DNA from: Pseudocalidococcus azoricus BACA0444
GTDB lineage: Bacteria > Cyanobacteriota > Cyanobacteriia > Thermosynechococcales > Thermosynechococcaceae
Length of the DNA stretch: 24,000 nucleotides
Assembly (NCBI RefSeq): GCF_031729055.1
Contig: NZ_JAVMIP010000011.1
Coordinates: 59,936 to 83,935 of the forward strand
Direction of reading: 5' to 3'
Shown here: piece after piece, positions 15,001 through 21,000 of the stretch
How the letters are laid out: each line of letters starts with the position of its first letter
Position numbering within the stretch: the stretch's first letter is position 1
Made by a program: the position numbers

Positions 15001-18000
15001 CAGCAAGAAGAAGAGGAAGACTTGACCCAGTATCAAACCCCGCCCAATCCCACCGCCACCGCCCCCAAGACAAATACGGTTGGGTGGGAATTTAAGATTG
15101 TCCGGGCCCAACGGAGTATTTTTCAGCAACCAGAAACGTTAAAAACAGTCTGTCAAGAGGAGAGTCAGGGGGGGTGGATATTACTGGAAAAGTTAGATGA
15201 TCGGCGATTACGCTTCAAACGTCCCACCACCTGCCGTAAGCAAACAAACCCCAATCCCAATTACGATCCCTATCGGAGTTTTTATGGGAGTCGTTGGAGC
15301 TTGACCCCGATCCTTTCTGGAATCATTGCCGTAACGATGACTGCTCTCCCGGCCTATTTAGCCTATCGCCTGGTCAGCCTGCAACTTAGCTCCCCGAGTG
15401 CTCCCCCCGCGTCTTTGTCCCCACCGCCTCGCCCATTGCCTAGTGATCCCCTCGGTGATCCCCCCAGTAATCCGGCTGTGCTTGATGCCCCCTTTACTCC
15501 GCCCGCCCCTCCGCTGCTGCCTAGTCCTGGCCCTTAACCCCTGCTTGTGATATGACCGTTACTCCCCTCGCTCTCGGCAACTCTCTCCAAGGTGGCAAAT
15601 ATCGTCTTGATGCCCTCCTGAGCCAAGGTGGATTTGGGGTCACCTATCGGGCTACCCATACGCTTTTGCACCAAACGATGGTCTTAAAAACCATTAACCC
15701 GGCCCAGCATGATCCCCAACAACTGGCCCAAATAGGGCAGCGATTTATCCACGAAGCTCAACGTCTGGCCAAATTTCAACATCCCCACATTGTCCGGGTC
15801 AGCGATTGCTTCATTGAGGGGGGGCTACCCTTTATTGTCATGGACTATATTCCGGGGCAAACGTTGGCGGCTTTAGTCCGGAACCGGCCCCTCAGCCCTG
15901 ACCAGGCCATTCACTACATCAAACAGGTGGGTTCGGCCTTGGCTCTGGTTCATGATCATGGCCTCCTGCATCGGGATGTGAAGCCAGACAATATTATGCT
16001 TCGCCAGGGCACGGACTCAGTGGTGTTAATAGATTTTGGCATTGCAAGAGAATATACCCCTGGCAAAGTAGAAACCAATACGGGAATGCTCTCAGCCGGA
16101 TATGCGCCCGTAGAACAATATTTACCAAAGCATCAATGGAGTCCGGCTACCGATATTTATGCTCTGGCGGCAACCCTCTATGCGTTGTTAGCAGCGAAAC
16201 CCCCAGTTGCTTCTGTCTTGCGGGATCGAGTTCCTTTGGATAGTTTGCAAAAGTTTCAACGAAATTTGAGTCCTGGCCTGGAAGCTGCGGTCTTAGCAGG
16301 CATGGCCTTGGATGCGCGGGATCGGCCCCAATCGGTGGCAGAGTGGCTAGATCTCCTTGATGAAACCGAATCGGGCAACGGTCGCGCTGGGGTATCGGCC
16401 ATGACTACCAGTACCGTAGCAGTTCTCCCGCAAGCCCGCCCGATTATTCCGGCAACTCAACCAGAATTAGCTTCAGCCCGTAAATCTCGCTCACAACCGT
16501 CCTCCTCCCGCTCAATGTGGCACAGTCCTTGGTTTTGGTTGTTGGGAACCGCAATTGTGGGCAGTGGCATCGGGGCGGGCCTGGGGTTATGGCTACGACA
16601 ACAAACCAGCATACCTGGCGCACCCCCCTTAATTCAGCAGGATGAATCCTTCCCGCCCACCCGCCCGCCGGTAACACCCCAACCCCCGGTCCTCGACCTT
16701 CCCCCACCCTTTGAGAGTTCTCCAACGCCCTCCTTGCCCAGTCCGGAAATATCCCCCCCCCTGCCGGAAGAGGAGACCCCTCGCCCAGAACTGCCTACCC
16801 CGACTCCAGATGGGAACGGGACTCCGGCTCCAGAAGTGACTCCAACTCCACCGAGTACAGAAACTCCACCCCCAGAGCCAGCCCCGAGCGTTTCACCAGA
16901 ACCCATTCCGGTGGATCCCCCCAAACCGCCCCCAGCACCAGACCCCAAACCAGACCCACCAACGCCCGCCGCGACTGAACCGAAAAACCCAGGCAATCCC
17001 TAATCTTTTTGGGTTTTAGCTACTGCATCGGCGATGGGTTGATCCTGGCTGAATAATGTTGAGACTTTAGACGGGCACAGATGGCTGGACATAGTAAGTG
17101 GGCGAATATTAAGCGCCAAAAAGCTCGGGTTGATGCTCAAAAAGGCAAGATTTTTGCGCGCATTTCTCGAGAAATTATTGTCGCAGCCCGCCAGGGTTTA
17201 CCGGATCCGGCCGGGAATTTTCAGTTGCGAACGGCAATTACTAAGGCTAAAGCAGCGGGGATTCCTCAGGAAAATATTGAGCGGGCCATTGCTAAGGGGG
17301 CGGGAACGTGGACAGGAGACGGCGGGGCCTGGGAGACCATTCGCTATGAGGGCTACGGGCCTGGTGGGGTCGCTATTTTGATGGAAGCAGTAACCGATAA
17401 TCGCAATCGCACCGCCGCGGATATTCGTGCCGCCTTTAACAAATTTGATGGGAATTTAGGGGAAACGGGCTGTGTGGGCTGGATGTTCGAGCAGTGGGGA
17501 ATGATTACCTTGCCATTGCCAGCCGATGAAGAGCAATTTTTAGAGGTGCTGTTGCAAGGGGAGACAGAGGAGTATGAACTAGTTACCGATGAAGAACTAG
17601 GCCAAACATTAGTTGCCGTCAAAGTGGCTCCCCTCGGATTGGCGAAACTAACCGGCCTCCTAGACGCGGCGGGCTATCCCATTGAGTCCTCAGAGTTACA
17701 GTGGCTGCCCTTGAACACAGTCCAAATTACTCAACCCGACCAGGCCCGGCAAATATTACGGCTCATGGATGCCCTTGAGGATTTAGACGATATGCAAACC
17801 GTAGCCGCCAACTTTGAGTTATGAACTTACACAAGCAGGTATAAATGGGCTGCTCTATACAAGAGGGATTGGGAGGGAAAACTCCTACAATGAGGGTGCA
17901 TAGGGTGATTTTCTAAGTGGCTATGTCAATCCAGTTTCAGTTTCATCCTGAAAAAGCAATCGAAGCTACAGGAACCTTTCTAAAGCTCCATGGCCAGCCG

Positions 18001-21000
18001 ATGAACTATCTAGGCTTGCTGAAGATGCTATATATGGCTGATCGTCTTGCGCTTCAACGGATCGAGCAACCCATTACTGGGGATCATTATGTTGCGATGG
18101 ATTATGGCCCTGTGCTTGGTGGTGTTTACGATTTAATTAAAGGGCAACCCGTTGATCAGGCTTTACCTCGATGGTCTGATTTTATCTGCACCCAGAATAA
18201 CAAATTTGTTTCGTTGATCAATGATCCAGGCAATGAAGATCTTTGTGAAGAGGAAGAGGAAATCATTCAGGAGGTTTATAAATCTTTTGGGCATCTTGAT
18301 CCATTCGATGTCGCTGGGTGGACGCATACTCTTCCAGAATGGACAAATCCCCACGGCTGCCTAATACCAATTTCAGTAGAAGATGTTCTGAGGAATATTG
18401 GCAAAACGAATGAAGAAATACAACAAATTCAGAGAGAGGTGATTCGAGAAGCTTATCTAGATAGAGTCCTCCATGACCAACATCATTATTAATCTGGGAG
18501 ATGCATTTTTGATCGATACACCTCCTAATGGTCAACATCTCTATATTGCAATTGCACAAACCACTGAAAATGATTATCTATTTGTAAATGTGACTACTAG
18601 AAGAAATAATTCAGACACCTCTTGTGTTCTGTTGCCAGGATCACAGGTGACAAGTTTTATTGTTCACGAATCTGTTATTGCCTATCAGTTTGCTCGTGAG
18701 ATGAATGTAATTGAATTAGCTAGTCTCATAACTCCGGGTAGCCCTATCCCCAAAGGTGCCTGTTCTTCTGTGGTTCTTAGAAAAATTCAGCAAGGTGGCT
18801 TAGTTTCTAAGCGGTTAAAGAAACGATATAAAACAGCCCTCAAAGCTTTTTTAGGAATACCATAAACAAAGTTTATTGCTACCTGTGTAAGACGATGCAA
18901 CTAGAGCGAGATGATTAATCTTGAGCCTTGACCTTCTCTGAGGAAACCCTTATTCCCGCGTGAGTAATCGCACCACCCCGCCATCAACCGCCATCCTCGC
19001 CCAAGAACAGTGGCTTTTTACCCCAGGCCCTGTCTGTGCCGATGCAATTCCCCTCATCTATGCCTTTCCTAATACCTACAGTGTCGGGATTACCAGTTTG
19101 GGCTTTCAAGTCGTCTATGGCCTGCTGCGCAAACACCCCGGCCTGGCCGTGAGTCGTTTATTTACAGACTTAGCTGAGTCGTTGCCTCGTGAGCCAAAGT
19201 TAGTGGGGTTTTCCTTTTCCTGGGAGCTTGACTACGGGAATATATTAAGTTTATTGGAGCAGCTAGAGATTCCAATTTGGAGCCAACAACGGCAGGTTAA
19301 TCATCCCCTCGTTTTTGGCGGCGGCCCAGTTCTAACCGCAAACCCGGAACCCTATGCTGACTTTTTTGATGTTATTTTGCTTGGTGATGGGGAGGATTTA
19401 CTCGAAAATTTTATCCAGGCCTATCGGTCAGTCCAATCTGCCCCCCGTTTAGAACAACTGCTTACCTTAGCCCAAGTGCCGGGAATTTATGTTCCTGGTT
19501 TGTACGAAGTTGTTTACCGGGAGCCAACTGGAACAATTGAGCGGATTCAAGGGATTCATCCTGATGTTCCAACGACAGTAGTTAAACAAACCTATCGGGG
19601 AAATACCTTAGCTGCCTCTTGCATTGTGACACCCCAGGCGGCCTGGGAAAACATTTACCTCGTGGAAGTGGTTCGTAGTTGTCCCGAACTGTGTCGGTTT
19701 TGTTTAGCGAGTTATTTAACCTTGCCATTTCGGACACCCAGTTTAGAGGGACTGATTCCGGTAATTGAAAAGGGCCTAACAGTGACGAATCGCCTGGGTT
19801 TATTAGGGGCTTCTGTGACTCAGCATCCAGAATTTGAAAGCCTCTTGGATTATTTGGGGCAATCCCAGTTTGATCATCTCCGTTTAAGTATTGCTTCGGT
19901 GCGGACAAACACGGTCACGGAAAAATTAGCCCGAACCTTAGCCAAGCGCGATACCCGCTCGATTACGATTGCCATTGAAAGTGGTGCCAGCCGCCTGCGG
20001 GAAATTGTGAATAAAAAACTAGAAAATGATCAGATTTGGGAGGCTGCTAAACAGGCCCAGGCCGGGGGACTTAAGGGGATTAAATTCTATGGCATGGTGG
20101 GTATTCCTGGTGAAATCCCGGCTGATGTGGCCGCCACCTTGGAGTTAATGCAGCAGTTGAAAAAAAGAACCCCCGGATTTCGCTTTACCCTCGGTTGTAG
20201 TACCTTTGTCCCGAAGGCCCAGACCCCATTCCAATGGCTGGGTGTTAATCCGCAAGCCCAACAGCGTCTGAAACAACTCCAAAAGGGCCTAGGACAGGTG
20301 GGGGTGGAATTTCGCCCGGAAAGTTATCAATGGTCGGTAATTCAAGCCCTGTTAGCGCGGGGAGATCGCCGCTTGAGTTCGGTCTTGGAAAGGGTGCGCC
20401 ATTATGGAGATTCCTTGGGCAGTTATAAGCGGGCTTTTAAGGAATTAAAAAATAATCTTGGGGCCTGGGAGGATTATATTTTTACCGACTGGAACTTAGA
20501 GCGGGTTTTACCCTGGCACCATTTACAGGGGCCCTTACCCAGGCAAACTTTGGCCAATCATCTGACAACCGCCCAGGCCCTCATGTCTAGGAACCCAGAT
20601 CAAAACTCAGAACAACAGATCTAGCCCTATAGCGTTACGCAGACTGTTCTGAGAGAGGAGAACTGTTAGAAGACTTCCCATAAATCATTTTCTAATTTGC
20701 CCCCACCTCACCCGAAATGAGTAAGGCTATAGCAGTCTGTCTTGATTTGCGAGAATGATTGTTATGCTGTAGAGATATAGCAATCCGTCTTCATTTGTGA
20801 GACTATTTGATCATGAATGCCCTTGGTAAGGAGTAGCCCTTCTTTAAGCCTAGGGTTAAGTCAAAATTTATCAGACACAAATAATCTTGGACTAATCTCA
20901 CGAATCATTACTGTTTGCTATATGGGTGAGGCAGTAGTTTAGAAGTTATCTGTGGGGACAAGCTCCTTAAAAGTAAAGTATTGTTGAATTCACAATAAAG

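Follow-up and report, generated by a model that had tools for sequence, protein, structure and literature searches.

What are two small, overlapping genes of low G+C content doing between yebC and a radical SAM gene in the genome of the cyanobacterium Pseudocalidococcus azoricus BACA0444? The stretch of DNA analysed here (the window) comprises 24,000 nucleotides (nt) of contig NZ_JAVMIP010000011.1, from position 59,936 to position 83,935 of the forward strand, and all window coordinates are counted from its first letter. An earlier reading made from the sequence alone (the sequence-only reading) had taken the pair for an uncharacterised toxin-antitoxin or defence cassette, composed of an antitoxin-type gene with a Panacea (DUF4065) domain and an unclassified, MazF-like partner of 130 amino acids (aa). 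Our analysis indicates that the pair is very probably a type II toxin-antitoxin module that belongs to cluster T6 of the PanAT class, already described in the literature, and the two genes are called panA and panT here.

17917..18492, + strand: panA (open reading frame 1, ORF1), GTG start, 191 aa
18473..18865, + strand: panT (ORF2), ATG start, 130 aa

Both co-directional ORFs were found as previously described, with a 20-nt overlap (18473..18492, + strand) in which the panA stop lies over the panT start, so that translational coupling of the two genes is possible. In the mechanism that we propose, panA and panT would be co-transcribed and translationally coupled, and PanT would be a MazF-fold translation inhibitor that arrests growth, probably as an endoribonuclease using H22 and T41. 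PanA, a standalone Panacea antitoxin, would neutralise PanT by direct protein-protein binding, possibly with its acidic C-terminal helical tail placed against a basic surface of PanT.

Assignment of the pair to PanAT cluster T6

The Panacea name was given to DUF4065 by Kurata et al. (2022, PNAS, PMC8832971), who predicted 1,268 PanAT loci with 88 toxin clusters. Cluster T6 of their Dataset S1 contains many cyanobacterial pairs, among them those of Nostoc flagelliforme, Microcystis, Oscillatoria acuminata, the unicellular cyanobacterium SU3, Spirulina, Aphanizomenon and Prochlorothrix, all with the antitoxin gene before the toxin gene and in most cases overlapping by -8; the cluster further includes pairs from spirochaetes, Elusimicrobia and proteobacteria (PMC8832971). 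The N. flagelliforme pair, WP_100897919.1 (PanA) and WP_100897920.1 (PanT), has this order and an overlap of -8 (PMC8832971). By exact look-up, WP_100897920.1 is the same protein as one of our PanT homologues (P0049), which is 77% identical to ORF2 over 99% of its length, and PanT is assigned to T6 because this protein is listed there. The O. acuminata and SU3 members of T6 were recovered independently (P0306 and L056), and the T6-listed cyanobacterial members show 64-77% identity to the window PanT. The homology to Dataset S1 T6 proteins by which membership of the cluster is defined was thus found for the window protein. The terms "uncharacterised" for the cassette and "unclassified" for ORF2 have to be given up, as the family is T6 of Kurata et al. 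(2022), with cyanobacterial members already listed; the window cassette is an ordinary further PanAT T6 member and no new system. As for the idea of a MazF-like toxin that has taken a Panacea antitoxin, the pairing itself is supported, and its novelty is lost, since it was already published for T6.

The T6 pair of Pseudomonas moraviensis, PanA WP_083354365.1 and PanT WP_083201923.1, was scored as a validated "TA" pair, and its PanT received the HHpred call "EndoA/PemK/MazF-family RNAses" (PMC8832971). This toxin inhibits protein synthesis specifically, and not DNA or RNA synthesis; it forms a stable complex with its PanA in pull-downs and is neutralised by it, and neutralisation by PanA is independent of ClpXP and Lon (PMC8832971). 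The termini of the P. moraviensis PanT, as given by its primers (MPGNIL..., ...IRQNNF), occur in no homologue among the matches listed, and a profile search of the 5.8-billion-protein database with the PanT family alignment (A2) returned only cyanobacterial members among the matches listed, with no bridge to Pseudomonas.

The first protein carries the Panacea core that had been recognised in it. The quoted peptide is present, and a hidden Markov model (HMM) search matched PanA to PF13274 (SocA_Panacea) with E=3.4e-26 and 92.8 bits, against a gathering cutoff of 25.7; the match covers residues 34-142 of PanA and positions 1-112 of the 113 in the profile. PanA also matches phrog_1281 of the PHROGs database (E=3.3e-23). 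No AbrB/MazE domain was found in PanA with Pfam, and it is not an antitoxin of the MazE/AbrB/PemI type. Its start codon is either the GTG at 17917 or the ATG at 17923, because the N-terminus of PanA homologues reads M-x-I-Q-F-R-F-H; in a 98%-identical relative the gene call uses the ATG and yields a protein of 189 aa. Past the Pfam domain, PanA has an acidic C-terminal tail of about 45 residues (approximately 143-187) with the pattern PEW..P.G..IPI.VEDILKN.GK..EEI.EI.QEA.REAYLD, which is conserved even in PanAs that are 33-46% identical (alignment A4). The T6 PanAs are listed without an N-terminal domain (noNTD; Kurata et al. 2022, PMC8832971). Direct neutralisation of a toxin by a standalone Panacea domain has been demonstrated, and other PanAs can neutralise by means of their C-terminal helices (NetFlax paper, PMC10440598). 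We infer a role in neutralisation for the tail of the window PanA.

SocA, the founding Panacea protein, is a proteolytic adaptor that hands its toxin to ClpXP, and PanA could act in the same way: it matches the NCBIfam SocA_antitoxin model weakly (E=3.3e-6). For this equivalog (NF047745), however, PanA scores 26.9 bits where the cutoff is 190, and because the score lies so far under the cutoff ORF1 is classed as PanA-type and SocA itself is excluded. The order of antitoxin before toxin with an overlap is that of type II pairs, PanT is MazF-like and not a homologue of SocB, and the stable P. moraviensis complex and the neutralisation without ClpXP or Lon (Kurata et al.) likewise speak against an adaptor. 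We regard a SocA-like role for PanA as scarcely credible.

The association of the two genes holds throughout the family. PanT has 329 close homologues in the 5.8-billion-protein database; the 120 homologues among the matches listed are 72-98% identical to it, the named ones are all cyanobacterial, and all are annotated as "hypothetical". At the 50%-identity level, an exhaustive HMM search gave 657 representatives. The family is common in cyanobacteria, including Nostoc, Microcoleus, Microcystis and Planktothrix. Among 75 cyanobacterial genome loci, 73 have a PanA homologue directly upstream of panT, co-oriented and overlapping with it; of the remaining two, one lies at a contig edge and the other is a degraded fragment. 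PanT members that are only 30-50% identical are also preceded by a PF13274 gene. The co-occurrence of the 130-aa protein with Panacea genes in other genomes, one of the checks named in the sequence-only reading, is thereby borne out. The overlap is 8 nt long in most of the 75 loci, against 20 nt in the window, where it is longer because the window PanA has a 4-codon C-terminal extension (DQHHY). The features by which Kurata et al. (2022) recognise two-gene PanAT loci are all found here: an overlap, PanA upstream in the 73 of 75 loci, occurrence in many cyanobacterial genera, and varied flanks. A 118-aa protein from the representative search (P0151) reads ...QREAYLDGALHG...LGDAFLIDTP..., so that the C-terminus of a PanA runs on in frame into the N-terminus of a PanT; this probably reflects a frameshift or miscall at the overlap, and could be a natural fusion.

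The state of the two genes differs in one direction only. Both are intact in 58 loci, while in 12 loci panT is frameshifted, truncated, interrupted or lost beside an intact panA; the reverse state was found in none, and both genes are disrupted in a single locus, from a reduced symbiont genome.

"Orphan antitoxin" loci (12): L050, L057, L064-L069, L072, L073, L075, L076

If each gene were hit according to its length, all 12 disruptions would lie in panT with a probability of ~2e-5, and sampling does not favour this asymmetry because the loci were found via PanT peptides. The asymmetry is the pattern expected if PanT is a toxin and PanA its antidote. Chromosomal toxin-antitoxin modules are often inactive, and the window pair could itself be a decaying or domesticated remnant whose PanT is no longer toxic; the ~16% of homologous loci with a disrupted panT indicate that loss of the toxin is frequent in the family. 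However, both ORFs are intact here and in the 98%-identical relative, the near-invariant residues G9, H22, N39, T41, D48, C51, S67, Y71 and S112 are all retained, and the overlap and the Shine-Dalgarno (SD)-like site are preserved, so that we hold a remnant to be very unlikely. In L073, the end of PanA (4182) and the main PanT fragment (4962) lie ~0.7 kb apart, suggesting that the toxin gene has taken up an insertion.

Predicted fold and active site of PanT

The structure of PanT was modelled with AlphaFold. A shallow alignment gave a predicted local distance difference test (pLDDT) score of 77.6, with best matches in the Protein Data Bank (PDB) that were already MazF; when 120 diverse family members were used, the pLDDT rose to 93.3, with a predicted template modelling (pTM) score of 0.87. 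Comparison of the model with the PDB by Foldseek produced 36 matches at E<=1e-3 (best E=5.8e-5). The best 50 PDB matches of this predicted structure are all MazF/PemK/MoxT/YdcE/EndoA toxins with probability 1.00; template modelling (TM) scores normalised to the target are 0.54-0.64 for these 50, or 0.5-0.64 in round terms, with root-mean-square deviations (rmsd) of 4-6 Å. Among viral predicted structures (BFVD), the best matches are PemK-like endoribonucleases. PanT also matches one PHROG family, the function of which is not known.

The PanT family (A2) was compared by hhalign with a reference alignment (A3) of 15 toxins annotated as MazF, PemK or ChpB, which come from E. coli K-12 and plasmids. 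The two profiles align over 97 columns with a probability of 90.1% and E=1.6e-6, and this support is moderate, given that A3 consists of 15 sequences only. All the ORF2 motifs quoted in the sequence-only reading are present, and their order does track the MazF strands, as GDAFLID, HLYIAIA and FVNVTT align with MazF beta1, beta2 and beta3, respectively. Together with the model, this places PanT among divergent MazF/PemK proteins (SH3-like barrel) in its predicted fold, as had been suggested from its motifs.

R29 and T52 are catalytic residues of MazF. The hhalign alignment pairs G9-D10 of PanT with G10-D11 of MazF, H22 with R29, and T41-T42 with T52-T53, and the beta1-beta2 loop of PanT is 6 residues shorter than that of MazF. 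Position 22 is His in 118 of the 120 family representatives and Arg in one, so that the Arg that is catalytic in E. coli MazF and invariant in A3 is replaced by H22 in PanT. Position 41 holds Thr in 103 and Ser in 10 of the 120, in agreement with the Thr/Ser expected at the place of MazF T52; N39, D48, C51, S67, Y71 and S112 are also highly conserved across the 120 representatives. After the barrel come two basic C-terminal helices. The His-for-Arg change and the extra basic C-terminal helix with its conserved motif IQQGGLxSKRLK are features specific to the PanT family. We favour, with modest confidence, an endoribonuclease chemistry for PanT, with H22 and T41/T42 as the putative active site; from its position in the alignment, H22 may have the catalytic role.

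CcdB and MazF have a common SH3-like barrel fold. PanT could use the MazF/CcdB fold for an activity other than that of an RNase, such as poisoning of DNA gyrase as by CcdB, or act on another target. The canonical catalytic Arg is absent, with His at position 22, PF02452 does not detect PanT, and CcdB is among the HHpred calls published for the related cluster T5 (PMC8832971). Nevertheless, CcdB is in 0 of the top 50 structural matches, which are all MazF-type RNases, the residue that corresponds to MazF T52 is conserved, and the validated T6 toxin blocks protein synthesis and spares DNA and RNA synthesis. His is, in addition, a common catalytic residue in RNases. A non-RNase activity seems to us highly improbable. 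In another reading, which we consider rather doubtful, the T6 PanT would form a distinct MazF-fold branch with a His-based active site and another RNA target, and PanA, in cyanobacteria and the phages that infect them, would be the infection sensor of an abortive-infection module. There, H22 would replace Arg alongside T41, N39, D48 and S67, and the basic C-terminal helix pair could direct PanT to a specific tRNA or rRNA site and not to mRNA.

Several observations weigh against the assignment of the pair to a PanAT module with a MazF-fold toxin. The PanT sequence has no match in Pfam, NCBIfam, PADLOC or PDB sequences; PF02452 (PemK_toxin) gives no match to the window PanT at E<=1 and a single, sub-threshold match (E=0.017) among the 120 family representatives, and a family profile search of PDB sequences returned nothing. 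The structural similarity is only moderate, as the TM scores and rmsd values given above indicate. The chemistry or the target may differ from those of canonical MazF because of the His-for-Arg change and the loop shortened by 6 residues. The link to the validated P. moraviensis toxin runs through the published clustering and an accession match to a co-listed member, and the toxicity ascribed to the window PanT is carried over from this Pseudomonas protein, the sole T6 member with experimental proof. Finally, generic scans for sigma-70 promoters and terminators called neither for the cassette. With these points taken into account, a type II module of cluster T6 is still the reading that we adopt.

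Genomic setting, mobility and control region

The neighbours of the cassette are housekeeping genes.

17081-17824: yebC, upstream neighbour (PF20772 and PF01709)
18960-20624: radical-SAM/B12-binding gene, downstream neighbour

The isolation of the pair by about 90 bp on each side holds, with a yebC-panA spacer of 92 bp (43.5% GC) and a panT-radical-SAM spacer of 94 bp (43.6% GC). The cassette has a GC content of 40.7%, compared with a mean of 49.9% (standard deviation 4.2%) for the window, and 0.4% of the 949-bp stretches in the window have a GC content as low or lower. A 98%-identical copy lies in the same yebC/radical-SAM context on a metagenome contig. Outside the species of the window, the nearest YebC is 82% identical, and the three nearest YebC relatives (77-82% identical; L099-L101) have no cassette. 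These three retain the upstream synteny (RibD, a hypothetical gene, a Ser/Thr kinase and YebC), which stops exactly at the 3' end of yebC (window 17825 onward), with a different downstream gene in each. A clean empty yebC/radical-SAM site was not found among these relatives; there is a synteny breakpoint instead. Because synteny ends at yebC and the downstream genes vary, the cassette is placed at a recombination or rearrangement hotspot.

Elsewhere, the flanks of PanAT are unrelated between loci. A scan of viral contigs with alignment A1 found one viral contig, of 51 kb (L102; IMGVR_UViG_3300037420_002479, 85-5390), with a PanA/PanT pair in which PanT shares 72% identity with that of the window; a 1,425-aa tape-measure protein (PF20155) is encoded immediately upstream of the pair, which thus occupies a moron-like site in the tail module. 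A distant PanT member (P0169, 136 aa) is encoded on a 3,212-bp Logan contig (ERR14836150; L097) together with a Rep_1 rolling-circle replication protein and an RHH-like protein, the upstream PanA being lost at the contig end; this contig is probably a small plasmid. By tblastn, no copy of PanT was found in deposited plasmids, nor in 50,697 deposited phage genomes. Low GC, the synteny breakpoint, the varied flanks and the viral and Rep_1 contigs lead us to regard the cassette as a horizontally acquired, mobile accessory module. The proposal of a two-gene module thus gains support from its conservation and mobility across loci.

The same observations bear on the possibility that the module serves anti-phage abortive infection, with PanA sensing infection and freeing or activating PanT, in place of a role as a selfish addiction or stress module. 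The cassette on the phage-like contig comes right after the tape-measure gene, a typical moron position, PanA and PanT both match PHROG families, and the cassette forms an accessory island of low GC. On the other side, the models of PADLOC-DB 2.0 match neither protein at E<=1, no defence genes stand beside the cassette among its housekeeping neighbours, the P. moraviensis pair is listed as "NotPhage" (PMC8832971), and the tblastn search of deposited phage genomes found no copy. We consider a role in abortive infection unlikely, and retain the type II toxin-antitoxin module as the preferred account.

Three elements were marked in the spacer upstream of panA.

17886..17891, + strand: TACAAT, -10-like hexamer read from the sequence, candidate panAT promoter element
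17893-17898 and 17902-17907, + strand: AGGGTG direct repeat
17902..17909, + strand: Shine-Dalgarno-like AGGGTGAT, read from the sequence, about 7-9 nt before the GTG at 17917

Of 71 homologous loci, 59 carry a TAnAAT-type hexamer 25-60 nt before the panA ATG, and panAT may be transcribed from the TACAAT element. In 36 of the 71 loci, from several genera, the palindrome TACAAT-N3-ATTGTA overlaps the -10-like hexamer, ~36-47 nt upstream of the panA ATG (L001-L076; for instance TTTACAATAGAATTGTACTAG in L005 and L010); the window keeps TACAAT (17886-17891) without the second palindrome arm. The palindrome is a candidate promoter/operator of the family, and a better operator candidate than the AGGGTG repeat.

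That repeat had been proposed as an autoregulatory operator. It is real, but AGGGTG occurs 18 times in the window against 14.6 +/- 3.9 expected, which is no enrichment, and by a rough estimate a 6-mer repeated within 92 bp is expected by chance. The repeat is not conserved in L014, the locus with the most similar upstream region, and the 92-bp spacer has no notable inverted repeat; we have rejected it as an operator. At the place equivalent to AGGGTGAT, which is presumably complementary to the 3' end of 16S rRNA, L014 carries GAGGTGAT before its first ATG. The AGGGTG repeat is most likely the product of chance and of a ribosome-binding site, to which its second copy would belong. The Panacea domain is also probably no transcriptional autoregulator, as argued in the NetFlax paper (PMC10440598).

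Two further features were seen upstream of panA in other loci. An 11-bp inverted repeat, ATGCTTTGTCA-N13-TGACAAAGCAT, lies ~60-95 nt upstream of panA; it is perfect in L022 and L024, has similar copies in L006, L016, L018, L021, L023, L035, L047 and L076, is found in loci of the Microcoleus, Microcystis and Tychonema type, and does not occur in the window. It might terminate the upstream gene, serve as a second operator or mark an edge of the mobile unit. A conserved 5' leader, GTGAAGCAGTCGCTTCAGAATGCTTATG, precedes the panA ATG in L001-L011 and others, the window leader being different. This leader contains the hairpin GAAGC-AGTC-GCTTC and a segment, TGCTT, that is complementary to the AAGCA spanning the start codon, and it may be a translational control structure.

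Regarding other features of the window, Rfam and tRNA scans found zero RNA genes. Two antisense ORFs inside the cassette (18163-18354 and 18263-18559, both on the - strand) were rejected as spurious, in view of the strong conservation of the + strand proteins and the lack of any support for the antisense frames. The Ser/Thr protein kinase gene at 15552-17003 (+ strand) has a long Pro/Thr/Ser-rich C-terminal tail with ~60-63% GC and a strong negative GC skew, and a 120-aa Gly-rich ORF at 16634-16996 (- strand) is a mirror artefact of this tail.

Comparison with known systems

For annotation, the 130-aa "hypothetical protein" family becomes PanT (T6, MazF-fold toxin) and its partner becomes PanA. 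The scientific addition beyond Kurata et al. (2022) is small. Modest new points are the family-wide His-for-Arg change, the acidic PanA tail that may be neutralising, the decay of the toxin gene first, and the phage-borne copy.

Within PanAT T6, the window shares the order of a standalone Panacea antitoxin followed by an overlapping toxin of ~125-130 aa, and the toxin has no domain-database match and a MazF/PemK-like predicted fold. The window differs in its overlap, 20 nt instead of 8 nt, and its copy belongs to a cyanobacterial lineage that has otherwise been little sampled.

The MazEF, PemIK (Kis-Kid) and ChpBS systems resemble the pair in their toxin, which has the fold and strand order predicted for PanT, the N-terminal motif G-D-x-[FI]-[LW]-[IV]-D, a Thr at the end of beta3 (MazF T52) and a C-terminal helix. 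They are likewise small bicistronic operons with the antitoxin gene first, and inhibition of translation is the expected outcome for both. In contrast, the MazEF/PemIK antitoxin is an AbrB/MazE-type DNA-binding protein, whereas that of the window has a Panacea domain. Unlike the toxins recognised by PF02452, PanT escapes this model and has His at the position of Arg29 (118 of 120 representatives), and it differs from MazF in the beta1-beta2 loop, shorter by 6 residues, and in the extra basic C-terminal helix (IQQGGLxSKRLK).

The SocAB system of Caulobacter crescentus ("type VI", with a Panacea antitoxin that is a ClpXP adaptor) has in common with the window the Panacea/DUF4065 domain of its antitoxin. 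Its toxin SocB is unrelated to PanT, and direct binding of toxin by antitoxin would be expected for the window pair from the T6 data. In CcdAB, the gyrase poison system of the F plasmid, CcdB shares the SH3-like barrel superfold with MazF; no CcdB stands in the top 50 structural matches, however, and the validated T6 toxin hits translation.

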